A stretch of 64,000 nt of DNA from Actinomycetota bacterium (GCA_035691205.1 DASSJM010000017.1:9481-73480); one strand, 5' to 3'; counted from the stretch's first letter, positions 1,759 through 64,000 are shown. The notes: generated from the letters alone by a model not told the origin. Numbers and translations: made by a program.

Positions 1759-2928
1759 ATGGCCGATCCCATCGATCCGCTCGACTACCTCGATCTGGAT
1801 CGCCTGTTGACCGACGAGGAGCGGGCGGTTCGGGACACGGTCCGGGACTGGGTTCGGGACCGGGTCCTCCCCGGGATCGAGGGATGGTTCGAGGCCGGCG
1901 GGTTCCCGCTCGAGGTCGCCAAGGAGCTCGGCGCGATGGGGCTCCTCGGGATGCACCTCACCGGCTACGAGTGCGCGGGCACGAACGCGGTCTCTTACGG
2001 CCTGGCGTGCCTGGAGCTCGAGGCGGGCGACAGCGGCTTCCGCTCGTTCGTCTCCGTGCAGGGATCGCTCTGCATGTTCCCGGTCTGGCGCTTCGGCTCC
2101 GAGGAGCAGAAGCAGCGCTGGCTCCCGCCGATGGCTCGAGGCGAGGTCGTCGGCTGCTTCGGGCTCACCGAGCCGGACGCAGGATCCGACCCATCGAGGA
2201 TGCGCACGAGCGCGCGCCGCGACGGTACGGACTGGATCGTCTCGGGCACGAAGATGTGGATCACGAACGGGAGCGTCGCCGACCTCGCGGTCGTCTGGGC
2301 GCAGACCGACGAGGGCATCCGCGGCTTCCTCGTGCCCACCGACACGCCCGGGTTCTCCTCGAGCGACATCCACCGCAAGCTGTCGCTCCGGGCGTCGGTC
2401 ACCTCCGAGCTGGTGCTGGACGACGTGCGACTGCCGCAGGAGGCCGTGCTCCCCGAGGCGACCGGGATCAAGGGTCCGCTCTCATGCCTGTCCGAGGCGA
2501 GGTACGGGATCGTGTGGGGCGCGATGGGGGCCGCCCGGACCTGCTTCCAGACCGCCCTCGACTACTCGAAGACGCGCGTGCAGTGGGGACGGCCGATCGG
2601 AGGGTTCCAGCTCACGCAGCGCAAGCTCGCCGACATGGCGCTCGAGCTGAGCAAGGGGACGTTGCTCGCCCTGCACCTCGGGCGGATGAAGGACGAAGGA
2701 CGCCTGCTGCCCGGGCATGTGAGCATGGGCAAGCTCAACAACGTGCGGGAGGCCCTCGCGATCGCGCGCGAGGCTCGAGGGATCCTGGGCGCGAGCGGGA
2801 TCACGCTCGAGTACCCGGTGATCCGTCACATGAACAACCTCGAGTCGGTCCTCACCTACGAGGGCACGAACGAGATCCACACGCTCATCGTGGGCGAGGC
2901 CCTCACCGGGCTCCGCGCGTTCGAGTAG
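1759..2928 (+). CDS. Acyl-CoA dehydrogenase (glutaryl-CoA dehydrogenase-like)
   Basis: 389 aa. ACAD motifs GCFGLTEPDAGSDP, MWITNGS, YEGTNEIHTLIVG. Start is 14 nt after a Shine-Dalgarno-like stretch. Confidence 0.9.
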   Translation: MADPIDPLDYLDLDRLLTDEERAVRDTVRDWVRDRVLPGIEGWFEAGGFPLEVAKELGAMGLLGMHLTGYECAGTNAVSYGLACLELEAGDSGFRSFVSVQGSLCMFPVWRFGSEEQKQRWLPPMARGEVVGCFGLTEPDAGSDPSRMRTSARRDGTDWIVSGTKMWITNGSVADLAVVWAQTDEGIRGFLVPTDTPGFSSSDIHRKLSLRASVTSELVLDDVRLPQEAVLPEATGIKGPLSCLSEARYGIVWGAMGAARTCFQTALDYSKTRVQWGRPIGGFQLTQRKLADMALELSKGTLLALHLGRMKDEGRLLPGHVSMGKLNNVREALAIAREARGILGASGITLEYPVIRHMNNLESVLTYEGTNEIHTLIVGEALTGLRAFE

Positions 2929-2944
2929 GTCTGGTTCCTCCCGG

Positions 2945-3745
2945 TTACCAGTCCCAGCCGCCCGAAGGCTCGACGGGCTCGGCCGGCTCGACGGGTTCGA
3001 TGGGTTCGACCGGCTCGACGGGCTCGGCCTTGAAGAGCAGCCGCCACGTGAGCGGCCCGAAGTACCCGTCGGCCTGGCTCTGCAGCCCAGGACGTGACCG
3101 CTCGAACGCCTCGACGGCCGCGCGCGTCTTGGGGCCGTACTCGCCGTCCATGGGTCCCGGATCGAAGCCCAGCAGGGCGAGCTGTTCCTGCGCGGCACGC
3201 ACGCGATCCGAGCCCTCGCCGTAGAAGGGGTACGGGACGGGCTTGCCCCGGTCGAGCTCGGACTTGGCCTTGGCGGTCATGGCCCGCGCGTCGGCCGGGG
3301 TTCCCAGGAACTCGTAGTGCATCGGATCCTTGATGCTCTGGTACCAGCCGCCCCAGAAGAACCCGTACCCCCACCAGAGGCCGGGCAGCCACGTCGGCAT
3401 GTCGGAGACGAACGCCTCGCGATACGGGTTGGACGGGGCGTTGATGTCCACCGCCAGCCCCCACGAGTGGTTAGAGGGCACCGACGTTCCGCGGATCGCG
3501 CGGCAGGCGAACCCCCAGCTCTGCCCGGTCTTGACGTCGTAGCCGCGTCGCTCCGTCTCGTCGATCAGCATCGCGACGAGTTGCGCGATCGCCTCGTTCA
3601 CGGGCAACCGGAGGCCGTCCTCGCGGCTCAGGCTGACGAGCCGGTCCTGCTGGCAGGTCGGCCAGCCGCTGCCCCACCCGCGGGTGCTCGCGCTCGTGCG
3701 CGAGACGGTCGGCGCCTTCGGGTACTCGCCGAGCGACGGCGACAT
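2945..3745 (-). CDS. Peptidase M15 (VanY/zinc D-Ala-D-Ala carboxypeptidase-like) with a C-terminal peptidoglycan-binding domain and an (E/A)PVEP repeat tail
   Basis: M15 signature NHSWGLAVDIN (SxHxxGxAxD). PG_binding_1-like VRAAQEQLALLGFDPGPMDGEYGPKTRAAVEAFE. Start chosen at the internal ATG 3745 (MSPSLGEYPK), which is preceded by gaggaggg. The ORF-track start at 3838 adds an Arg/Gly-rich extension that is probably not translated. Confidence 0.8.
   Translation of the reverse strand: MSPSLGEYPKAPTVSRTSASTRGWGSGWPTCQQDRLVSLSREDGLRLPVNEAIAQLVAMLIDETERRGYDVKTGQSWGFACRAIRGTSVPSNHSWGLAVDINAPSNPYREAFVSDMPTWLPGLWWGYGFFWGGWYQSIKDPMHYEFLGTPADARAMTAKAKSELDRGKPVPYPFYGEGSDRVRAAQEQLALLGFDPGPMDGEYGPKTRAAVEAFERSRPGLQSQADGYFGPLTWRLLFKAEPVEPVEPIEPVEPAEPVEPSGGWDW
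2966..3028. repeat. Tandem 6/12-nt periodic repeat (ggctcgacgggytcg...) encoding EPVEPVEPIEPVEPAEPVEP at the C-terminus of the M15 peptidase
   Basis: Directly visible periodic repeat. It produces GSTGS repeats in the shadow frame. Confidence 0.8.
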
Positions 3746-3881
3746 CAGGGTCCCTCCTCTTCCCAGATGGGCTCCTCGATCTCGAGATCGTCCGGCGGAT
3801 CCTCGTGCCGATCGGGGTCCCATGCCTCCAGGTCCCACTTGCCCGGATCGATCCGCTCGCGCGGTCGTCGGTCGTCGGTCC

Positions 3882-4898
3882 TCATGTCGCGTCCTCCACG
3901 AGGTCGGGGATGTCGATCACGCCGCCGTGCGGGAACTCGGCGAGGTACCGATCGAAGTCCCACCCTTGCAGGAACTCCATGGCCGCCTCGAAGCCGCTGT
4001 CGAACAGCAGGTCCTGCACGGTCTCGTCGATGTCGAAGTCGGTCGCTCTGACGCCGAACGTGTCGACGAAGATCGTCCGTGCGAGCGCCGAGGGCTCGTC
4101 GATGTGGATCTGGTCGTGGAAGCTCGTCATCGTTCCGAGCATGGCTCGCGCGAGGCTGAACGTGCCGTGCACGTCGTACTTCTGGCGCTGCGCGGCATCG
4201 GGCTTGGCCGACAGCTTGACCCCGAAGGTGGGCCAGCGCGCCGGCCGCCCATCGGTCCGGTCGAACACCTCGATCGGGAAGTTCGACAGCATCCCGCCGT
4301 CGACCATGTACGAGGTCTGCTCCTTGCCCTCCGCGTCGCGACTCGTGAAGCGGAGGGGCTCGTAGAAGAACGGGATCGACATCGACGCCCGGACGGCGCC
4401 GGCGACCGACTGCTCGTCGGGGTCGAGCCCGTACTGCGGGTAGTCCCACGGGAGCCGGACCAGGCGTGCCCTGGTCACGTCGGAGGTCATCACCACGAGC
4501 CGGTAGGACCTCTCGGGGGGAAGCGAGCTCCCGGGGTCCTCGATGCGGAGGTCGCCGAACGTGCGCACCCCGAGCGCCGCCAGTTGCTGGTCCAGCCACT
4601 CGCGTAGGTAGCTACCCTCGTAGATCCCCTTCTCGAACAGCAGCGACGCACCCTTGCCCACAAGCCAGAGGTGGTCGAGGTACCCCTTGTCCTCGAAGCG
4701 TCCGTAGTCGATCTCGCGCATCACGCGCTGCAGTTCGTCGGGCGTGATGTCGGCGGCGATCAGGGCACCCACGATCGCCCCGGCCGATGTCCCGGCGATC
4801 CGGTGGAACGCGTAGCCGGCCTGCTGCAGGGCGGAGTACGCGCCGACGAGCCCGATGCCCTTGACGCCTCCACCCTCGAGCACGAGGTCAGCGTCCAT
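3882..4898 (-). CDS. Patatin-like phospholipase (PNPLA family)
   Basis: Start MDADLVLEGGGVKGIGLVGAY (GGGxKG oxyanion motif). GTSAGAIVGA (GxSxG nucleophile). DGG motif in YMVDGGMLSNFP. gggagga SD upstream of ATG 4898. The ORF-track N-terminal 43-aa extension was rejected. Confidence 0.9.
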   Translation of the reverse strand: MDADLVLEGGGVKGIGLVGAYSALQQAGYAFHRIAGTSAGAIVGALIAADITPDELQRVMREIDYGRFEDKGYLDHLWLVGKGASLLFEKGIYEGSYLREWLDQQLAALGVRTFGDLRIEDPGSSLPPERSYRLVVMTSDVTRARLVRLPWDYPQYGLDPDEQSVAGAVRASMSIPFFYEPLRFTSRDAEGKEQTSYMVDGGMLSNFPIEVFDRTDGRPARWPTFGVKLSAKPDAAQRQKYDVHGTFSLARAMLGTMTSFHDQIHIDEPSALARTIFVDTFGVRATDFDIDETVQDLLFDSGFEAAMEFLQGWDFDRYLAEFPHGGVIDIPDLVEDAT

Positions 4899-5493
4899 CG
4901 CCGTCCTCCCCGGCGACGGTGATCGGCTCGCCCCGCCAAACGGGATCGGGCGGGACCGTCGAGAGGTGGAACACGTTCGCGAGGTGTACCCACATGCGTT
5001 CGCCGATCGTGGGTGACTCCTTGGCATACCGGTCCATCCGTTGCCGCGCGCTGTTCAGGCTGCCCTCGGGCTGACCTCTGGCGTCGCGCGGCAGCGCGAG
5101 GGTCTCGGCCATGTCGCGGCGGAGCGTCTCGTACCGGAGCGCCGCGATGCGGTGACCCTCGGCCCTCGTCGCGTATCGCAGGAACGTCTGCAGGCTCGAC
5201 AGCACGGCCGCGAGGACGCTGATCACGCCGACGACGATCAGCCACGTCTGCGAGTTGGCCGCGCCGTCGCCCGTCTCGCTCGCGTTCTGCACCGAGGCGA
5301 AGGCGCTGGTCCCCACCACCGTGGTGAGCACGACGACGGGGATGCCCAGCATGAGGTACCGCCGCCGGAGCCGGTCGGCCATCAGGCGGTGTCCGTGCTC
5401 GGCGGCGGCAACCCGCCGATGCCAGGACTCGTAGAGGTTCTCGAGGGCGTCGTCCCAGGCCAACCGGCTGGGCTTCGTCGGTGTCGTGGCCAT
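4888..5493 (-). CDS. Two-TM membrane protein, SLATT-like in architecture (helical N-region, two TM helices, helical C-region). Possible pore-forming or holin-like effector.
   Basis: 201 aa. TM1 LMLGIPVVVLTTVVGTSAFASV and TM2 WLIVVGVISVLAAVLSSLQTFL, flanked by charged helices (ENLYESWHRRVAAAEHGHRLMADRLRRRY...RYATRAEGHRIAALRYETLRRDMAETL). Strong SD ggaggagagg 6 nt upstream of the ATG. Its stop overlaps the patatin start by 11 nt. Confidence 0.6.
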   Translation of the reverse strand: MATTPTKPSRLAWDDALENLYESWHRRVAAAEHGHRLMADRLRRRYLMLGIPVVVLTTVVGTSAFASVQNASETGDGAANSQTWLIVVGVISVLAAVLSSLQTFLRYATRAEGHRIAALRYETLRRDMAETLALPRDARGQPEGSLNSARQRMDRYAKESPTIGERMWVHLANVFHLSTVPPDPVWRGEPITVAGEDGDGR

Positions 5494-5602
5494 GTGCCTC
5501 TCCTCCGTGTGGGGCGATGCTGACGACTCGCGTCGCCGCGCGCGATGGGGCGTTCGGCGTACGGACCGCGTCGACGGATATCTGGGCTACAGCGTCGGGT
5601 GG

Positions 5603-6298
5603 CTAGGGCGGCGACGCCTGGCGATAGCGGACGCGGAAGAAGGCGAGGACCGCCGGCCCCGCCGGGGACGACCGGACCACGGTGCTCGCGGACGGGTTCG
5701 CGACGCTGAGCGAGAGCGTGACGTCGTCGTCGCGCGGGTGGTTGGGGTCGTACAGGCGCAGGGTGAGGGCCGTTCCGCTCAGGTCGTAGCCGTACGCGAG
5801 GACCTGGTGGTTCTCCTTCAGGTCGAACGGGTCGCTCGACCGAATGCGGACCAGGCCGAGGGGAGACGGTCGTCCGGCGTCCACGTCGGCGCGCACCTTC
5901 GGCCACTCCTCCGTGATCATCCGCCACGAGCGTCCGTGTGGGGCGACCCCGAGGCGGCTCCAGACGGTCTCGCCGTCGGGAAGGAGCGGGCTCATCAGCT
6001 GGAGGTACCGAGCGGGACCGAGCGGCAGGTCGAAGCTGTCGAACAGCCGGTCCACCAGGTAGTCGAAGAGCGGACCGTCATCGGGCGGCGTGGTGTCCGG
6101 CGGCGGCGGGCGGTCGGCCTCGAAGTAGTCGCGAGCCGCGAACGCCATGCCGCCGCACAGGCCGTTCGACGCGTCGCCGATCGGGACGCTCACCACGCCC
6201 GGGATGCCGATGCGCCGGACGGGGACGCGTGCGAACGAGTTCGGGAACCCGAACCCCGAGGTGCTCGGAAGGAACCCGGGGACCACGCGCGTCGTCAT
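5603..6298 (-). CDS. Hypothetical protein with papain-fold, C39-like cysteine-peptidase Cys and His motifs
   Basis: Start at internal ATG 6298 (MTTRVVPGFLP...). NGLCGGMAFAARDYF resembles the C39 catalytic-Cys block xCGxAxLxM. ENHQVLAYGYD resembles the C39/papain His block NH(F/A)VVLxGYD. The ORF-track start at 6511 adds a junk-like extension. Confidence 0.6.
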   Translation of the reverse strand: MTTRVVPGFLPSTSGFGFPNSFARVPVRRIGIPGVVSVPIGDASNGLCGGMAFAARDYFEADRPPPPDTTPPDDGPLFDYLVDRLFDSFDLPLGPARYLQLMSPLLPDGETVWSRLGVAPHGRSWRMITEEWPKVRADVDAGRPSPLGLVRIRSSDPFDLKENHQVLAYGYDLSGTALTLRLYDPNHPRDDDVTLSLSVANPSASTVVRSSPAGPAVLAFFRVRYRQASPP

Positions 6299-6461
6299 CG
6301 GCTCGACACCTCGGCCGCACGGTGCCACGCCGAGGCCCCGGGCGGTAGCGCCGCTCGTCCTACGTCGGGGACCGGATGCTCCCGGAGCGGCCGGCCGCCG
6401 GGCGCTGGACCCCGTCGGGTAGCCTTGCGCACACACCGACGAGCGGAGGTTCGATCCGACC

Positions 6462-6650
6462 ATGACACGAGAGCTGGAGTGGCCGCTGTTCGAGAAGGCG
6501 ATCGAGATCACGGCATCCGCCCTTCGCGGCGGGATGGGTGGGGAGAACAGCCAGCCCCCGAGCTATGCGGGCGATGTGTTCCGCGCCGTGTGGGACTCGC
6601 TCAAGGAGGCGGCTCAGGAGCTGCCGGAGCGTGGCAAGGCCGGCTTCTAG
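6462..6650 (+). CDS. Small hypothetical protein (62 aa)
   Basis: MTRELEWPLFEKAIEITASALRGGMGGENSQPPSYAGDVFRAVWDSLKEAAQELPERGKAGF. Balanced composition. gcggagg SD upstream. Divergent from the cassette. Confidence 0.4.
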   Translation: MTRELEWPLFEKAIEITASALRGGMGGENSQPPSYAGDVFRAVWDSLKEAAQELPERGKAGF

Positions 6651-7015
6651 TCCACGCTGCTGGACAGGTCGCGGAGCGAGACGATCCCCACCAGCACCCC
6701 GTCATCGGTGACGGGCAGGTGACGGAACCCACGCTCGAGCATGAGGTCCCGCGCGACGGCCACGTCCGTGCCGGCCTCGACGGTGACGGGATCGTGGGTC
6801 ATCCAGTCGGCGACCGGGTGGTGCGCGGCGTCGAAGTCGCTCGCCAGCGCACGCAGGATGTCTCGTTCGGTGAAGATCCCGGCCGCAGCGCCGCCGTCGA
6901 GCACGAGTGCCGAGCCCACGCCGCGCCCGCCCATCAGGGTGGCCGCCTCGGCGACCGTCGCGCCGGGCTCGACCGTCACGAGATCCCTGCTCATGATGTC
7001 GCGGACCGTGGCCAT
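6647..7015 (-). CDS. CBS domain-containing protein
   Basis: 122 aa. MATVRDIMSRDLVTVEPGATVAEA...GIVSLRDL is a typical CBS pair. Confidence 0.85.
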   Translation of the reverse strand: MATVRDIMSRDLVTVEPGATVAEAATLMGGRGVGSALVLDGGAAAGIFTERDILRALASDFDAAHHPVADWMTHDPVTVEAGTDVAVARDLMLERGFRHLPVTDDGVLVGIVSLRDLSSSVD

Positions 7016-7910
7016 CTCTGAGAGAGAACCTATCCGTCGCCGCGCCGGTCGGGAAGCCCTGCGGCGCTGGTACCGGCCTCGTCGCGACGCCTATCCATGG
7101 CGCGCCGACCGGGACCCGTACGCGATCTTGGTCTCTGAGGTGATGCTGCAGCAGACGCAGGCACCGCGGGTGGTGCCGGTGTATGTGGCGTTCCTCCGGC
7201 GGTTCCCGACCGTGATCGCGCTCGCCCGCGCTCCTCGGCGGGCGGTCCTCCGCGCGTGGGCTGGCCTCGGCTACAACCGTCGCGCGGTCGCGCTGTCCGA
7301 GGCGGCTCGGCGCATCGTGCGGGACCACGCCGGTCGCGTTCCCGAGACGCGCCAGGCCCTCGAAGGCCTTCCCGGCGTCGGTCCCTACACCGCGGCCGCG
7401 GTCGCCTCCCTCGCGTTCGGCGTGCCGGCTGCGGCCGTGGACACGAACGTCCGACGGGTCGTGGCCCGCGTCCACCTCGGCGTCGAGCCGCACGAGGCGC
7501 CCAGGGGCGAGGTGGAGACCGCGGCGGACGCGTGGCTCGATCGACGAGACCCGGGTGCGTGGAACTCGGCGGTGATGGATCTTGGACGCGAGGTGTGTCG
7601 GCCGCGCCCGCGCTGCGGCATCTGTCCGCTCGCTTCGGCGTGCCGGTTCCGAGCCTCCGGAGCGGTCGGGACGCCCGGCCCCCGGCGGCAGGGCCCGTTC
7701 GAGGGCTCCACCCGCCAGGTGCGCGGCGCGGTGGTCGGCGCGCTCCGCGAGCGCCCGACGCTCACGCTCGCGGGTCTCTCCTGTCAGACCGCGTTCGAGC
7801 TCGAGCGCATCGTCGCCTGCCTGCCCGGGCTCGTAGACGATGGGATCGTCCACGCCGGACCGGCGGCCCTGGCCGGCCGGTCGTCGGGCCGGGTGCGGCT
7901 CGCGACCTGA
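6996..7910 (+). CDS. mutY: A/G-specific adenine DNA glycosylase (MutY-like HhH-GPD with a 4Fe-4S loop)
   Basis: LRRWYRPRRDAYPWR (MutY N-terminal motif). VSEVMLQQTQ. GLGYNRRA. LPGVGPYTAAAV (HhH). CxxxxxxCxxCxxxxxC in CRPRPRCGICPLASAC. Start uncertain: ATG 6993/6996 or GTG 7008. All three overlap the divergent CBS gene start. Confidence 0.75.
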   Translation: MSRTVAISEREPIRRRAGREALRRWYRPRRDAYPWRADRDPYAILVSEVMLQQTQAPRVVPVYVAFLRRFPTVIALARAPRRAVLRAWAGLGYNRRAVALSEAARRIVRDHAGRVPETRQALEGLPGVGPYTAAAVASLAFGVPAAAVDTNVRRVVARVHLGVEPHEAPRGEVETAADAWLDRRDPGAWNSAVMDLGREVCRPRPRCGICPLASACRFRASGAVGTPGPRRQGPFEGSTRQVRGAVVGALRERPTLTLAGLSCQTAFELERIVACLPGLVDDGIVHAGPAALAGRSSGRVRLAT

Positions 7911-27504: not shown

Positions 27505-29433
27505 CTACGCGGCAAGGACGACCGCGAGCGCCGTGATCGCGATGTAGATCGCGAGCCCGCCGGCCACCAGCATCACCCGCAGCGAGCGCTGGATCGGCGA
27601 CCGGCCGAACGCGTAGTAGGCGATGGGACCGAACAGCGGCACGACAATCACGACCAGCATCCACAGCACGCGTGTGCGGTTGGGCACCGCGTCCTGGCGC
27701 ACGAGGTCCCACAAGGCGATCGAGATCCACGCGGAGTACAGGATCAGCGGCAGCGCGTAGGCGTACAGGCCGAGCAGGATCCCGAAGAACCCGGTGGCGA
27801 GCGGTATCCCGAGCACGGTGACCTCCTGGGAGACGTCGGACGACGCGGGCACGTCGAGCGTGCGGGCGTCGCGGATCTGGATCCGGTGCGGAACGCCGGT
27901 TTCGGCGATCGCGGGCGAGGGCGGCGCGTCCTCGGCGCCGGGCATGTTCTCCTGTGGCGGGGGCGGGGGCTGCGAGCGCCAGTCGCCGGTCTCCACGTCG
28001 CCGAGCGCCGCGTGCAGGTACCGCTCGAGCGGACCGAAGACCGCGCCGAGGGAGCCGCCGGGGACCTTCGCGAGCGGTGAGTCGCATCCGGCGCGCCACT
28101 CGATCGCCGCCGGCAGGCTCGTCGAGAAGTCGTTCCCGGCGAAGCAGTCTCCTCCCGCGGTCGGCGCGCCGAGCAGGAGGTCGGCGTCGCCGGAGCCCCG
28201 GACGACGTTGTCGCGGATCTCGTTCCCCTCGGTCAGCCACAGGTTCTCGTCGGGCGAGGGCAGGAGCGCGATGCCGAAGTTCACGTGATCCTCGACGAGG
28301 TTCTGGGTGACCACGTTGTCGCGCCCGCCGTTGACGATGATCCCGGTGCCGAGCGACGGGTACTGCAGGTCGTAGGCGGGCGCACCCTCGTTGTTGTTGT
28401 CGTGGACCCAGTTCCCCGCGATCACCATGCCGTGCTGCGGCGCGAGCTCCTCGGAGTCGAGCGTGTTGGGCACGATCCCGCTCATGTTGTTCCGCCACTC
28501 CGAGTTGACGACGAACATCTGCCCGCCGGCGTTGGTGCCGCTGAAGCCGAGCGCGTTGTTCTCGGCGAGCACGTGGGTCACCACCGAGTGGCACGGGAAG
28601 CATTGGCCGACGTAGAACCCCGAGTCCGGGTGCCCGCTCGCGTAGGAGTGGTCGAACTGACCGTAGACCGAGTCGTACGCGAAGAGGCCGTAGTCCCCGT
28701 TGTTGAACGCGGTGAGGTAGGAGCCGCGGTAGCCGAACACGCTCGACCAGTAGAACCCGTTGAGCAGGTAGTGGCGCGCGGTGAGGTTCTCGATCGCGAC
28801 GCCGTCGGCCTCGATCACCTGGATGCCGTTGTCGAGCGTGAACCCGCCCTCCAGGATCGTCTCGTTGCGGTCCAGGCCCCGGATCGTGAGGAACGGCGTC
28901 GTGACGAGCACGGCCTCCTCATACACGCCGGGGGAGATGAGCACGATGCCGCCGGGCTCGGCCGCGTCGACGGCCGCTTGGATCGTCGGCGCGTCCTGCG
29001 GGACCCGGATCTCGTCGCCGGGGAGCCCGGGCGGGACCTCGCGGCCGGGCCCGACCTCGCCTGCACCGCCCGGCAGCGACGCGTCGCCGACCAGGACGAC
29101 ACCGACCATCCCGATCCCAGGGGCCCCGTGGAGCGTGCAGTGGTACGGGAAGGCGCCCTCTGCGTCGAAGGTATGCCCGAACCCCTCATCGGGTCCGAGG
29201 TCCTCCGACGCGAAGGACCCGTCGTCGGCGGTGATGTTGTGCAGGGTTCGTCCGTCGTTGGTCCATTCGATCTCGCCGCCGACCGGGATACGGACGACCC
29301 TCGGGTCGAACACGTTGTCGATCGCGGAGACACCCTCAGAACCATCGTCGGAGGTGCCCCGGGCGGGCGCGGCGGGAAGTGCCAGCGCGAGGAGGACCGA
29401 GAGAGCGAGGGCGGCGCGCAGGCGGGGGCGCAT
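27505..29433 (-). CDS. Fusion protein: signal peptide, type-1-copper cupredoxin domain, right-handed beta-helix (NosD/PbH1-like) domain and a C-terminal PLDc_N-type membrane anchor
   Basis: Start MRPRLRAALALSVLLALALPAAPA at ATG 29433. Cu site LHNITAD...YHCTLHGAPGIGMVGVV (H/C/H/M). PbH1-like repeats (NNMSGIV, GNWVHDNN, VTQNLVEDHVNFGIAL). C-terminal 2TM with WMLVVIVVPLFGPIAYYAFGR (PLDc_N motif). Confidence 0.8.
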   Translation of the reverse strand: MRPRLRAALALSVLLALALPAAPARGTSDDGSEGVSAIDNVFDPRVVRIPVGGEIEWTNDGRTLHNITADDGSFASEDLGPDEGFGHTFDAEGAFPYHCTLHGAPGIGMVGVVLVGDASLPGGAGEVGPGREVPPGLPGDEIRVPQDAPTIQAAVDAAEPGGIVLISPGVYEEAVLVTTPFLTIRGLDRNETILEGGFTLDNGIQVIEADGVAIENLTARHYLLNGFYWSSVFGYRGSYLTAFNNGDYGLFAYDSVYGQFDHSYASGHPDSGFYVGQCFPCHSVVTHVLAENNALGFSGTNAGGQMFVVNSEWRNNMSGIVPNTLDSEELAPQHGMVIAGNWVHDNNNEGAPAYDLQYPSLGTGIIVNGGRDNVVTQNLVEDHVNFGIALLPSPDENLWLTEGNEIRDNVVRGSGDADLLLGAPTAGGDCFAGNDFSTSLPAAIEWRAGCDSPLAKVPGGSLGAVFGPLERYLHAALGDVETGDWRSQPPPPPQENMPGAEDAPPSPAIAETGVPHRIQIRDARTLDVPASSDVSQEVTVLGIPLATGFFGILLGLYAYALPLILYSAWISIALWDLVRQDAVPNRTRVLWMLVVIVVPLFGPIAYYAFGRSPIQRSLRVMLVAGGLAIYIAITALAVVLAA

Positions 29434-29493
29434 CGCGGCCGAGGCTAGCACCCGTGCACGACCCGACCGTGGAGCGGGTACCGTGGGTACGCC

Positions 29494-30888
29494 ATGCCGA
29501 CCGAACGCTTCACCGCCCTGGACGCCTCGTTCCTGTACCTGGAGAGGCCCGCGATGCACATGCATGTGGCCGGGCTCTCGGTGTTCGATCCCTCGACGCG
29601 CCCGCGCGGGCCGCTGCGGTTCGAGGACGTGGCGAACGTCTTCGCCACGCGGTTGCACCTCGCGCCGCGCCTGCGACAGAAGGTCAAGACCGTGCCCTTC
29701 GGGCTCGGGTTGCCGGTCTGGGTCGACGACGCGGCGTTCGACCTTGGTTTCCACGTCCGCAGGGCGGCGCTGCCCTCGCCGGGCGGCCGACGCGAGCTCG
29801 CCGAGCAGGTCCAGCGCGTGCTCTCGCGCCCGCTCGATCGCTCCAAGCCCCTGTGGGAGCTCTACGTGATCGAGGGCCTCGAGGACGGCCACGTGGCCAC
29901 GCTCATGAAGGTCCACCACGCGATGATCGACGGCCTGTCGGGGATGCACCTCACGGCCGCGATGTTCGACCTGTCGCGCGAGCCGCGCGACGAACCGCCG
30001 CCGCCAGCGTGGGAGCCGGCGCCGGAACCCACGCCCCAGGACCTGCTGCGCGAGGCGTCCGAGGACCTCGTGACGCACCCCGCGCAGGCCCTCGCCCAGG
30101 CGTTCGAGGCGGTCCGGCGGACGCCCGCGCTCGCGGCCCTGGGTCTCGGCGCGGTGCTCTCGGGGTTCCGCAGCATCCTGGACATGGGCGCCCGTCCGGC
30201 CTCGCCGCTCGATGTGCGGATCGGACCCAACCGCCGGTTCGCGATGACCGATGCCCCGCTGCAGCGCTTCAAGGACATCAAGGACTCGCTCGGAGGTACG
30301 GTGAACGACGTCGTCCTGACGGTCGTCGGCGGGGCCCTGCACCGACTGCTGAAGGAGCGGAAGGAGCCGACCAAGGGGCGCACGCTCAGGGTCATGGTGC
30401 CGGTGTCGGTGCGCTCGGGCGGCGACGGTCCGCTCGGCAACCGCGTCGCGCCGGCGTTCATCGACCTGCCGGTCGGTCCCCTCGGGCCCAAGCGCCGGCT
30501 CGCCCTCGTCCGTGAGGGGACGCGCCACCTCAAGGAGTCGATGATGGCCATGAGCGCGGACACGATCATCGGACTGGGCGCGTACGCGCCGGGCGGGCTC
30601 CTCGCCGGGGCGGCGCGGTTGGCCAGCCGGGGGCCGTGGTTCAACCTCACGGTCTCCAACATCCCGGGTCCGCCCCAGCCCCTGTACATGGCCGGCGCCC
30701 GGCTGGTGGCCCAGTATCCGGCGATCCCGCTGGGTGAGAACTCGGCGCTATCGATCGCGTGTACCTCGCTCGGCGGGACGATGGCGTTCGGGCTGACCGG
30801 CGACTGGGACGGCATCCCGGACCTGGAGCGCCTCGCGTTCGCCCTGGACGAGTCCCTCGCCGAGATCTCGAAGGCCGCCGGCCTCTAG
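29494..30888 (+). CDS. Wax ester synthase/diacylglycerol acyltransferase (WS/DGAT)
   Basis: HHAMIDGLSG (HHxxxDG active site). 464 aa. Confidence 0.9.
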   Translation: MPTERFTALDASFLYLERPAMHMHVAGLSVFDPSTRPRGPLRFEDVANVFATRLHLAPRLRQKVKTVPFGLGLPVWVDDAAFDLGFHVRRAALPSPGGRRELAEQVQRVLSRPLDRSKPLWELYVIEGLEDGHVATLMKVHHAMIDGLSGMHLTAAMFDLSREPRDEPPPPAWEPAPEPTPQDLLREASEDLVTHPAQALAQAFEAVRRTPALAALGLGAVLSGFRSILDMGARPASPLDVRIGPNRRFAMTDAPLQRFKDIKDSLGGTVNDVVLTVVGGALHRLLKERKEPTKGRTLRVMVPVSVRSGGDGPLGNRVAPAFIDLPVGPLGPKRRLALVREGTRHLKESMMAMSADTIIGLGAYAPGGLLAGAARLASRGPWFNLTVSNIPGPPQPLYMAGARLVAQYPAIPLGENSALSIACTSLGGTMAFGLTGDWDGIPDLERLAFALDESLAEISKAAGL

Positions 30889-58265: not shown

Positions 58266-59437
58266 CTACGGAGGCGGGAGGGGTCTCGATCTCGGCAAGG
58301 TGTCCACGTCGGGGCCGCCGTCGAGCGCGAGGATCTCCCAGGCCTCGACGGGGCGGGCGGCGCCCTTGAGCGTGAGGGGCTCCCGCTCGTGCGCCTGGAC
58401 GCGATCCTTGACGAGCGCGTACGTGCGGAACCCGACGAGGACCGTTCCGGGGTCCGCCGCTGCCTGCAGGCGCGCAGCGACGTTCACGGAGAAGCCGATG
58501 GCCGTGTACGAGCGCAGGACGTCGCTGCCGAACATGCCCACCATGCAACGCCCGGTGTTCACCCCCACCCGCACCCGAAGGTCGGCCGGGATCCCTCTTC
58601 CGCGGACCGCCGCGGTCAGCTCCTCCGCCCGGGTACGCATCGCGAACGCCGCCTGGACCGCCGACCACGCCTGCACCGGCTCCTCCAGGGAGACCGGCGC
58701 GCCGAACAGGACCATGAGCCCGTCGCCGATGTAGCGGTCGAGCGTGCCGCGATGGGCGACGGCGATGGCCGCCATCTCGCGGAGGTACTCGTTGAGGACC
58801 TCGGAGAGCTCCTCGGGCTCCAAGGTGTCGGACAGGTCCGTGAACCCCACCATGTCCGCGAACAACGTCGTCAGCTTGCGACGCTCGACGCCCTCGGAGG
58901 GTGAGAGCTCGCCCGCCATCAGCCCCTCGGCGACCTGGTGAGGGAGGAACCGCTTCAGCTCGCCCGTCCGCACGAGCTCGGCCATCTGCTCCTCGACGCG
59001 CGACTCGAGCTGCCGGTTGAGCTCGGCGACCTGGCGCAGGTGCTCGGCCTCCAGGTCATGCAGGCGCTTCTTCGACAGGCCCGCGTTCACCCGGGCCCCC
59101 AGCAGGACGGGGTCGATCGGCTTGGGCAGGTAGTCGTCCGCCCCGAGCTCGATGCACCGCACGGCGCTGTCGGGGTCGTCGAGCGAGGTCACCATCACCA
59201 CGGGCAGGTGCCGTAGCGCCGGGTCGGCCTTCAGCTGCTCGAGCACCTGGTACCCGTCCATCTGCGGCATCACGACGTCGAGCAGGATGACGTCGACGTC
59301 TCCGGAGCGGGCCAGCTCGAGCGCCTGCGCGCCGCCCTCGGCCGCGATCGCCTGGTTTCCCTCGCGCTCGAGGTGGGCCGTCGTCATCAGGCGCGCCACG
59401 GGATCGTCGTCCACCACGAGCACCCGCGCCTGCTCGT

Positions 59438-59441
<4 letters not shown>
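58266..59441 (-). CDS. Response regulator receiver fused to an adenylate/guanylate cyclase (class III CYCc) domain
   Basis: VLVVDDDP...DVILLDVVMPQMDG (receiver Asp). Cyclase blocks TTLFADMVGFT, GDGLMVLFG, NTGRCMVG. GTGA overlap with the upstream kinase. Confidence 0.9.
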
Positions 59442-63220
<3,779 letters not shown>

Positions 63221-63240
63221 TCCCCTTTCGGTGCATCGCC

Positions 63241-64000
63241 CTATGCGGCCTCGGTGCAGGTTAGCCCGCGGACCGCGAGGGTGCGCCTGCCGGTCTCGAG
63301 GTCGCGCGTCCCCACCGCGAGCACCGTGCCGTCGGGGAGCGCGTCCACGGCGGTGAGCGCGTCGGACCCGCCCACGGGTGGACCATCGACGAACCTCCAG
63401 CGCCGGCCGTCCCAGCGAACCACCGCGACGCGGCTCGCCCCCTCTTCCCCCGCGGGACGCGATCCGACCGACCAGAGGTCCGCGCCGCCCACCGCGGCGA
63501 CGTCGGAGAGCACCGCGTCGTCGGGGATCGTCGCGGCTTCGGTCCACGCGGACCCGTCGAACCGCTGGATCGGCGTGCCGACGGCCCACACGTCGCTCGA
63601 CGCGAAGGCCTCGATCGCGGCGAGCTCGCCGTCCACCTCGGTCTCGCTCTTGCTCCACGCGAGCCCGTTGAAGCGCAGGATCAGCGGTCGGTTCTGCTGG
63701 TAGCCGACGACCCACAGATCGGTCGGGGAGACGGCGTCGACGTCGCGCAGCATCGCCCGGCCTCCTCCGATCGCGCGCCGGACGTCGACGATCTCCCAGG
63801 TGAAGCCGTCCCAGTGCAGCACGAGCGCGCGTTCGAGCGAGGCGGCGGGCTCGCCGACGTACCCGACCGCCCACACGTCGCTGGGCGAGAGCGCGACGAC
63901 GTCGTTCAGGACGCCGTCCACCTCGTCGGGCACCTCGACCTCGGCCCACGCGGTCCCGTCGAAGCGCAGGACCAAGGGGCTCTCGTCGAACCCGCTGGAG
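63241..64000 (-). CDS. Beta-propeller-repeat protein (W-x-V-G repeats), C-terminal part; the gene continues beyond the window end
   Basis: Repeats DVWAVGY, DLWVVGY, DVWAVGT, DLWSVGS, VLAVGT at about 45-aa spacing. Frame open to the window edge. Stop is 20 nt upstream of the kinase start. Confidence 0.55.
   Translation of the reverse strand, partial: SSGFDESPLVLRFDGTAWAEVEVPDEVDGVLNDVVALSPSDVWAVGYVGEPAASLERALVLHWDGFTWEIVDVRRAIGGGRAMLRDVDAVSPTDLWVVGYQQNRPLILRFNGLAWSKSETEVDGELAAIEAFASSDVWAVGTPIQRFDGSAWTEAATIPDDAVLSDVAAVGGADLWSVGSRPAGEEGASRVAVVRWDGRRWRFVDGPPVGGSDALTAVDALPDGTVLAVGTRDLETGRRTLAVRGLTCTEAA

Follow-up and report, generated by a model that had tools for sequence, protein, structure and literature searches.

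A minus-strand cassette of five genes

We examined a 64,000-nucleotide stretch of DNA from an Actinomycetota bacterium (GCA_035691205.1, DASSJM010000017.1:9481-73480; G+C content, ∼70%), hereafter the window, which carries on its minus strand, between positions 2945 and 6298, a cassette of genes for candidate membrane- and wall-attacking proteins. A preliminary description of this DNA had placed four genes there, and all four were confirmed as real, with coordinates read from the sequence. In the order in which the strand is read, these are geneA (6298..5603), encoding a papain-fold protein of 231 amino acids (aa); a gene for a two-transmembrane (2TM) protein of the SLATT_4 family (5493..4888; 201 aa); a gene for a patatin-like phospholipase (4898..3882; 338 aa); and a gene for an M15 peptidase with a peptidoglycan (PG)-binding domain (3745..2945; 266 aa). 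The earlier domain calls stood for SLATT_4, patatin, M15_4 with PG_binding_1, and the papain fold, except that the papain-fold protein matched no curated family. A fifth gene had been overlooked, a small acidic open reading frame (ORF) of 46 aa between the patatin and M15 genes (3885..3745), and the spacer between geneA and the SLATT gene holds a conserved noncoding element (5517..5590, minus strand, from the spacer alignment).

Reading of the sequence also bore out two finer points of the preliminary description: a GGAGG-like motif, that is, a visible Shine-Dalgarno-type site, precedes the start codon of each of the four main genes, and the SLATT stop and patatin start overlap by 11 nt. A hydropathy scan placed membrane segments in the SLATT protein only; the products of geneA, the patatin gene, the acidic ORF, and the M15 gene have neither a signal peptide nor a transmembrane segment. 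Because the M15 peptidase is leaderless, it would reach the wall solely through a breach of the membrane.

To place the cassette in context, we used ∼120 related loci, all of which are metagenome-assembled genomes (MAGs) or metagenome fragments. It is important to note that these loci were sampled with SLATT, geneA, or patatin as the seed and that the co-occurrence fractions given below are biased by that choice. Genes in the relatives were called with tblastn and a simple finder based on third-codon-position G+C content (GC3). Two structure models were used, both of moderate confidence.

SLATT and patatin form the conserved core

The 2TM protein scored 103.5 bits against the NCBIfam model for SLATT_4 (NF033632; cutoff, 55), which removes the doubt, raised in the preliminary description, that it might belong to no SLATT family or not be a real gene at all. 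The corresponding score for Pfam PF18186 was 24.4 bits, slightly under the gathering score of 27. Hydropathy predicts two transmembrane segments and no others (residues ∼46 to 66 and ∼81 to 105), and these are conserved across the homologue alignment, as are three C-terminal, cytoplasmic motifs (HRIAALRYE, DRYAKESP, and VPPDP). [quoted passage not shown]

The phospholipase was identified by Pfam PF01734 (119.9 bits; cutoff, 27.7; E = 2e-34). Its oxyanion motif (G9-G-G-V-K-G), nucleophile motif (G36-T-S38-A-G), and D200-G-G motif are intact and invariant in 32 homologues, and judged by these motifs the enzyme is predicted to be catalytically competent. It matched PADLOC models of CBASS phospholipases (E = 9.8e-13) and fell below the threshold of the NCBIfam CBASS_lipase model for CapV (NF041079; 28.8 bits; cutoff, 200). 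In a Foldseek search its AlphaFold2 (AF2) model resembled VipD, AbCapV, PlpD, and CapE alike, with TM-scores of ∼0.5 to 0.55, and CapV-like proteins were not singled out.

The conserved core of the cassette is this SLATT_4 gene followed by the patatin gene. Among 19 nonredundant SLATT-selected loci, drawn from metagenome contigs and a scan of GTDB, 16 had patatin directly downstream of SLATT, and SLATT lay upstream in three of four patatin-selected loci. Overlapping genes are seen in the window and the loci most closely related to it (L002, L010, L011, L029, and L049); elsewhere 17 to 89 nt separate the two, the exception being L015, in which the patatin match is split. Three loci (L004, L006, and L113) carry the pair without geneA. 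The preliminary description had suspected that the gene combination was a functional unit, and this held in that the genes co-occur in conserved fashion, in several gene orders, and in a second type of island built of nonorthologous parts. Its alternative, that the four genes never co-occur elsewhere, did not, since dozens of loci contain the block or a version of its theme. What did not survive was the picture of four genes in one fixed operon: SLATT_4 and patatin make up the core, geneA can be missing, and M15 is an accessory of one subclade.

An acidic peptide accompanies the M15 peptidase

The apparent 137-nt gap between the patatin and M15 genes is coding. The acidic ORF is translationally coupled on both sides, its start sharing ATGA with the patatin stop and its stop sharing TGATG with the M15 start, and it was also called by the gene caller of an independent assembly (L001). 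Its product is 46 aa long with an isoelectric point of 4.2 and contains, in the window, the motif WDLExWDPDRHEDPPDDLEIEEP, which across loci takes the form WDLE-x-(F/W)DPD-x-(Y/H)-x-x-PP-x-x-LE-x-EEP. This motif was present in all 10 loci with M15 and in none of the 27 patatin loci without M15 (Fisher P = 2.9e-9); the peptide is an obligate companion of M15. It is encoded as a separate ORF in the window, L012, L014, L019, and L032 and as an in-frame C-terminal extension of patatin in L002, L010, L011, L018, and L075. Even in L032, where M15 lies 3 kb from patatin, the motif forms a 31-aa ORF directly upstream of M15. Further, identical patatin C termini occur with peptide and M15 (L019) or with neither (L013, L015, L029, and L049), and because the same C terminus is found in both settings, peptide and M15 appear to have been gained and lost as a unit. 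From this pattern of fusion and fission we argue that the peptide may physically connect patatin and M15, its fused and free forms being a candidate Rosetta-stone link between the two enzymes.

The M15 protein combines a Peptidase_M15_4 domain (PF13539; 39.9 bits; cutoff, 25; E = 6.3e-10) with a C-terminal PG_binding_1 domain (PF01471; 47.9 bits; E = 1.5e-12) and ends in an (EPV)n tail. The zinc-ligand residues are present (H93-x6-D100 and H143), and over both domains the protein matched PHROG endolysin families (best E = 2.6e-19). Loci that are otherwise syntenic differ in having or lacking the gene, which is confined to one subclade. In L020 (6738-10329), a Peptidase_M15_4 gene that has neither a PG-binding domain nor the acidic motif has a SLATT gene on either side (41% and 62% identity) and adjoins a pair that resembles, judged by eye, an RHH antitoxin and a PIN (VapC-like) toxin; the contig ends ahead of any patatin gene.

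geneA encodes a papain-fold protein of an unnamed family

The geneA product conserves C48 (in NGLCGGM), H164 (in NHQVL), and D184/N186 (in YDPN). The cysteine lies at the N terminus of a helix and the histidine and Asp/Asn on the strands that follow, as in the papain fold (clan CA), and the closest structural neighbors include staphopain C and C39-like peptidases. The model points to a putative papain-like (clan CA-like) cysteine hydrolase. There was no match in Pfam or NCBIfam at an E value of ≤0.1 and none among PDB sequences at an E value of ≤10 with a 31-sequence profile. A place in a curated peptidase family (C39, C1, C10, C47, or NlpC/P60) was rejected on the grounds that no profile matched.

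The family is large, with 2,209 representative clusters (50% identity) at an E value of ≤1e-3, from bacteria and at least one archaeon. Elsewhere the geneA domain is fused to B_lectin, ricin-type lectin, aegerolysin, FG-GAP, MIR, crystallin, DUF7910, and N_BRCA1_IG domains, and the lectins and aegerolysin among these partners point to a role as effector or toxin. Signal peptides occur in about a dozen of 150 relatives. A 2,675-aa nSTAND1-WD40 protein carries the domain in an effector-like position, with a trypsin-like motif seen by eye at its N terminus, and a 981-aa protein of a Haloferax plasmid ends in it.

Relative to the core pair, geneA is a frequent but dispensable neighbor. It lies upstream of SLATT in the window, L002, L010 to L015, L018, L019, L029, L041, L049, and L075 and downstream of patatin in L017, L021 to L025, L042, L114, and L115. 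In L009, L050, and L077, it lies downstream of a paralogous patatin (41 to 43% identity) with a divergent SLATT gene nearby, and three loci (L044, L046, and L051) have patatin and geneA without SLATT.

The geneA-SLATT spacer carries a candidate promoter

In loci with geneA upstream, a Mafft alignment of 17 geneA-SLATT spacers revealed conserved DNA blocks, in the consensus order GTAGCCCGAAC, ∼13 variable nt, GT(C/A)ACCCGAACGCCCCATC, and then a CACGAT box. Ten loci have this box, which begins 27 to 28 nt past the CCCCATC motif, at 28 nt in eight of them. The window has, on the minus strand, the direct-repeat boxes GTAGCCCAGAT (5590-5580) and GTACGCCGAACGCCCCATC (5562-5544) and a −10-like box, CAGCAT (5522-5517), 27 to 28 nt downstream of the repeat box. 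A riboswitch or other noncoding RNA (ncRNA) was considered for the cassette and rejected: Rfam gave no match at an E value of ≤1 in positions 2500 to 7500, and RNAalifold predicted no pairs, and hence no consensus structure, for 12 of the spacers. Because neither search pointed to RNA, we read the element as a regulatory site at the level of DNA, probably the promoter/operator of a SLATT-patatin(-peptide-M15) transcript separate from that of geneA.

In L012 (6195-6245), the spacer motif is repeated (CCGTAGCC...CCCGAACGCCCC) right behind the M15 stop, and there the SLATT-patatin-peptide-M15 block is bracketed by similar sequences. Other loci do not share this arrangement, and flanking direct repeats as the scar of an insertion were therefore set aside as a general feature. 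BTAD (SARP-type) regulators occur in 5 of 15 surveyed neighborhoods; the window has none.

Genomic setting and a sister island

The relatives recovered all come from uncultured Actinomycetota, mostly of soil. A large group shares one syntenic site, with GH25, ADI, redoxin, in some cases HD_4, geneA, SLATT, patatin, in some cases peptide and M15, and, further downstream, LigD; protein identity within the block is 70 to 88%. The HD_4 gene of this group encodes a RelA/SpoT-type HD hydrolase of ∼200 aa and is codirectional with geneA and immediately upstream of it (L012:2235-2858, L013:9047-9652, L014:8513-9118, and L019:8434-9039); it does not occur in the window. The flanks of the window showed no synteny with other cassette loci, save for a weak ArsP_1 similarity to L007.

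The best evidence for selection of the combination as a unit comes from a sister island in L027 (4185-11228) and L116 (5001-11023), because nonorthologous displacement there keeps the functional theme. Its genes run patatin (+), Exo_endo_phos (−), NlpC/P60 (−), BTAD (−), Peptidase_C1 (+), Inhibitor_I42 (+), SLATT (+), and HTH_3 (−). A papain-type C1 peptidase accompanied by a chagasin-type I42 inhibitor lies upstream of SLATT, and the wall hydrolase and the peptidase are of families other than those in the cassette. Directly read, outside the hydropathy scan, the N termini of the NlpC/P60 and C1 proteins have no obvious leader. A C1 peptidase and a chagasin-type inhibitor directly upstream of SLATT constitute an unusual operon. 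In L017, the genes for SLATT, patatin, and geneA occur together with PNP_UDP_1, Peptidase_C1, and BTAD genes.

Genes of the Exo_endo_phos (EEP) family lie convergent with the cassette and just downstream of it in L003 (13208-14722), L010, L011, and L075, and one is found in L027 (5217-6194); recurring as they do in two types of island, they may be a further accessory component.

Neighbors of the kind found in conflict systems occur at some loci: TIR and SLATT_1/3 genes (L006); CHAT, Trypco1, and a PNP_UDP_1-SLATT pairing (L009); and a VapC-like gene, recognized by eye (L020). In L006 (6074-9420), genes for a SLATT_3/SLATT_1 protein (587 aa), a DUF4231 protein, and a TIR_2 protein lie directly upstream of the SLATT_4-patatin pair, and 4 kb downstream of the pair is a gene of the metallo-β-lactamase (MBL) fold with a weak match to the anti-Pycsar protein Apyc1 (Pycsar being the pyrimidine cyclase system for antiphage resistance). 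In L009 (3356-8690; also in L050 and L077), an operon of PNP_UDP_1, a 273-aa protein of unknown function, and SLATT_4 (46% identity) is divergent from a BTAD regulator and the paralogous patatin-geneA pair; upstream are genes for CHAT and Trypco1, and the locus looks like a conflict-system island.

Around the cassette itself, the CBS-domain neighbor reported earlier was confirmed, no toxin-antitoxin context was present, and the proteins of the 64-kb window included no phage structural protein or integrase, as the preliminary description had stated. A 62-aa ORF on the plus strand (6462-6650), divergent from geneA and abutting the CBS-domain gene, has a coding-like GC3 of 0.86 and no match in Pfam or PHROGs. 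Farther away (27505-30528, minus strand) lies a gene whose 1,007-aa product has a right-handed beta-helix region and, C-terminally, a PLDc_N domain.

Signal generators and defense-system membership

By the definitions of known systems, the cassette belongs to neither CBASS nor Pycsar. For CBASS, the operon contains no CD-NTase/SMODS cyclase and the patatin is below the CapV-type cutoff; for Pycsar, there is no adjacent PycC-type cyclase and no effector that binds cyclic nucleotide monophosphates (cNMPs). Among the top 25 PADLOC families listed for 134 neighbor genes from 15 related loci, none was a CD-NTase, and PADLOC v2 yielded no defense-context model for geneA, the peptide, or M15.

Class III cyclases that match PycC models of PADLOC do lie beside geneA or the SLATT-patatin-geneA trio in L007 (6272-8696), L021 and L022 (8100-9700), L024 and L025 (8400-9300), L044, and L051. 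An orthologous membrane-bound cyclase of 535 aa stands beside the complete trio in L021 and L022 and, in L007, beside geneA on its own. Such adjacency may be due to chance in actinobacteria, which are rich in cyclases. The window itself encodes a single class III cyclase, a response-regulator fusion >50 kb from the cassette. It is a 391-aa protein encoded on the minus strand. The gene beside it specifies a hybrid histidine kinase of 1,503 aa that contains five PAS, two receiver, and one Hpt domain (58266-63949 for the pair), and the two look like ordinary signaling proteins unrelated to the cassette. We therefore rejected an adjacent class III cyclase as a Pycsar-like signal generator, given the distance, the response-regulator fusion, and the lack of a cNMP-binding domain; its adjacency is probably incidental.

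Interpretation and rival explanations

The reading we put forward, with about an even chance of being right, is that the cassette is a self-directed module that disrupts the envelope from the inside out, of the abortive-infection-like kind known from conflict systems. Transcription would start at a regulated promoter in the geneA-SLATT spacer, and a trigger would activate the system. SLATT would then permeabilize the membrane or anchor patatin there, and patatin would hydrolyze phospholipids. The breach would admit the leaderless M15 peptidase to the peptidoglycan for cutting, much as an endolysin depends on its holin; before that point, M15 would be held by the acidic peptide, acting either as a tether to patatin or as an inhibitor. 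The product of geneA could be a protease that activates or gates SLATT or patatin, or else a further effector or a cargo. The sequences show the gene structure, the domain identities, intact catalytic motifs, the membrane topology, conserved linkage, and the fusion and fission of the acidic peptide; what sets the system off, in which order the steps follow, what geneA does, and which purpose the whole serves are inferred. That SLATT and patatin would compromise the membrane is argued by analogy, because both classes are used in this way in CBASS (PMC12480259) and a SLATT protein is required in DRT10 (bioRxiv 10.64898/2026.04.29.721553). As to purpose, we lean, with somewhat less assurance, toward anti-phage suicide. 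The identity of the core effectors, the modular shuffling of the parts, the conflict-type neighbors, and the occurrence of the geneA domain in an nSTAND1-WD40 protein speak for defense.

Several observations weigh against a conflict module. The search for a CD-NTase or SMODS protein that the preliminary description had called for found none among the 46 proteins of the window, no cyclase adjoins the cassette there, and Pfam detected no cNMP-binding domain in SLATT or patatin. The flanks of the cassette are metabolic, with no defense island, and geneA is much more widespread than the core pair, standing alone in ∼58 of 80 geneA-selected metagenome loci. At the syntenic site the block shows apparent vertical inheritance and purifying selection, unlike patchily distributed defense genes. 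Pore formation by SLATT and interactions between the proteins are predictions, and the relatives come exclusively from uncultured MAGs, which offer no experimental anchor. Against the purpose of defense in particular stand the absence of geneA and SLATT from the viral contigs scanned and the plasmid record. On plasmids, SLATT occurs as orphan genes in Caballeronia, and geneA homologues are isolated and hypothetical (Paraburkholderia, Microvirga, and Haloferax); all are distant and by themselves uninformative, and none is in the cassette arrangement.

A more specific version of this reading, which we consider unlikely, is a cyclase-independent immune or cell-death system gated by a papain-type protease (geneA or, in the sister island, the inhibitor-held C1 peptidase) and running as a cascade from protease to membrane to wall. 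The freed protease would activate the SLATT pore and patatin, releasing an endolysin that the acidic peptide had docked on the phospholipase.

The envelope could instead be opened in a subpopulation, by the SLATT pore, the phospholipase, and M15, to let out hydrolases or toxins that lack leaders, as in type 10 secretion or colicin release, with geneA or the sister C1 peptidase as the extracellular cargo. We regard this as improbable, if the weightiest of the rivals. The leaderless M15 peptidase has the two-domain architecture of phage endolysins; geneA is leaderless too, yet its family includes members with signal peptides and fusions typical of extracellular proteins; and a C1 peptidase paired with an I42 inhibitor is what one would expect of a dangerous enzyme restrained until export. 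BTAD and HTH regulators adjoin several islands, the block has apparently been passed on vertically at a syntenic site, and there is precedent in domesticated holin/endolysin cassettes that release toxins (PMC10847048). However, conflict systems are the only known setting of SLATT, which matches no holin family, the clade includes loci that do without M15, and geneA is absent from L004, L006, and L113 and mostly occurs alone elsewhere, which argues that cargo and machinery are not obligately linked. If release were nonetheless the function, the cassette would give Actinomycetota a release system akin to type 10 secretion. More doubtful still is developmental or stress-induced autolysis or envelope remodeling in a filamentous or soil actinobacterium, that is, a housekeeping-like chromosomal module under a dedicated transcription factor, with no connection to phage or competitors. 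A conserved chromosomal position, high sequence conservation over many MAGs, the promoter/operator-like element upstream of SLATT, BTAD regulators in a third of the surveyed neighborhoods, and metabolic flanks would all fit such a role. SLATT and patatin proteins of this type are otherwise conflict effectors, however; the parts are shuffled, gained, lost, and displaced by nonorthologous ones, which is unusual for housekeeping pathways, and conflict-type neighbors occur in several loci.

A phage origin was the second reading of the preliminary description, and of it only the endolysin-like architecture of M15 stood. Actinophage lysis cassettes run in the order pore protein, lipase, endolysin, which the order here resembles, and both M15 (endolysin families) and SLATT (an uncharacterized family) have PHROG matches, so that a prophage remnant or domesticated lysis module with a holin, a LysB-like lipase, and a LysA-like endolysin might be supposed. 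LysB enzymes, however, are of the cutinase type and not patatins. The patatin had no PHROG match, SLATT matched no holin family in Pfam, NCBIfam, or PHROGs, and the window holds no structural gene, integrase, or terminase. Neither SLATT nor geneA had relatives in 2.9 million viral contigs, tblastn found no SLATT match in 50,697 phage genomes, and the phage matches of M15 reach only 29 to 35% identity, to tape-measure lytic domains of Rhizobium phages. With no holin match, phage context, or viral relatives, this origin is very improbable, and we treat it as effectively excluded. The same holds with greater force for chance juxtaposition of unrelated genes, whose probability is negligible on the co-occurrence data: geneA is often alone and M15 is missing from many loci, but the adjacency recurs in several orders, starts and stops overlap, the acidic motif and M15 co-occur perfectly, and the theme has been rebuilt from nonorthologous parts.

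Comparison with known systems

SLATT4 and patatin (CapV) are established as separate effector classes of CBASS (PMC12480259). The cassette uses the same two classes, and the expected outcome, destruction of the membrane, is the same. What differs is that it pairs them, translationally coupled in the window, that it has no CD-NTase and a patatin structurally no closer to CapV than to VipD or PlpD, and that it adds genes for a papain-like protein, an M15 peptidase, and an acidic peptide. The first reading of the preliminary description, a CBASS-like effector module, is upheld as a resemblance and fails as a membership, given the missing CD-NTase and the 28.8-bit patatin score.

In the DRT10 defense system, a SLATT protein is a required component, and in DRT10/UG17 the SLATT gene of the reverse transcriptase (RT)-SLATT pair is coupled to the enzyme gene by overlapping stop and start codons (bioRxiv 10.64898/2026.04.29.721553). 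The tight coupling of a SLATT membrane protein to an enzyme gene is shared with the cassette. In contrast, the protein there is SLATT-5 and here SLATT_4, and the window has neither a reverse transcriptase nor an ncRNA. More generally, the partner of SLATT in the cassette is a second membrane-attacking enzyme rather than the signal generator of SLATT defense systems. A pairing of PNP_UDP_1 with SLATT was noted in the PNPase/TIR plus SLATT systems of Kaur et al. (2020; PMC7159879). PNP_UDP_1 accompanies SLATT in L009, L050, and L077 and is also present in L017, whereas the window has no PNPase or TIR gene.

Serratia uses an M15 enzyme in ChiWX. Domesticated holin/endolysin cassettes for toxin release are documented, and endolysin-like enzymes of the M15 family serve phage lysis cassettes and type 10 secretion alike (PMC10847048). 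Like these, the cassette joins a small membrane protein to a leaderless peptidoglycan peptidase with a cell-wall-binding domain. Unlike them, its membrane protein is a SLATT and not a holin, it lacks phage context and spanins (the latter as expected for a Gram-positive host), and its patatin, papain-like enzyme, and acidic peptide are extra.

Bacterial gasdermin systems encode a membrane-permeabilizing protein beside a cytoplasmic protease, of the cysteine or serine type, that could gate it. The likeness to a permeabilizing protein beside a cytoplasmic cysteine protease is one of analogy only, since the cassette has no gasdermin homology or identified cleavage site and its protease gene is dispensable in some loci; a protease-gated cascade would be analogous in function and unrelated in its parts. 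The staphopain-staphostatin and C1-chagasin (I42) pairs come to mind through the fold neighbors of geneA and through the C1 and I42 genes beside SLATT in the sister island. In the window, however, there is no evident inhibitor gene beside geneA, and geneA has no detectable sequence similarity to curated peptidase families.

In full-text searches of the literature we found no description of the SLATT-patatin pair or of the cassette, although a passing mention of SLATT-patatin neighborhoods may be contained in the founding SLATT paper, Burroughs et al. (2015). SLATT and patatin are common terminal effectors of bacterial immunity, and how SLATT senses is an open question in the DRT10 work (bioRxiv 10.64898/2026.04.29.721553). 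How the two are switched on outside nucleotide-signaling and RT systems is the question that this cassette, free of a signal generator and with a putative cysteine protease as recurrent third partner, addresses, and it can be tested here through binding partners, cleavage partners, and the licensing of wall hydrolysis by a membrane breach. The cassette is an undescribed, sensor-less, multilayered arrangement of known effector classes, together with a new, putative adaptor peptide and an unnamed family of papain-fold proteins.

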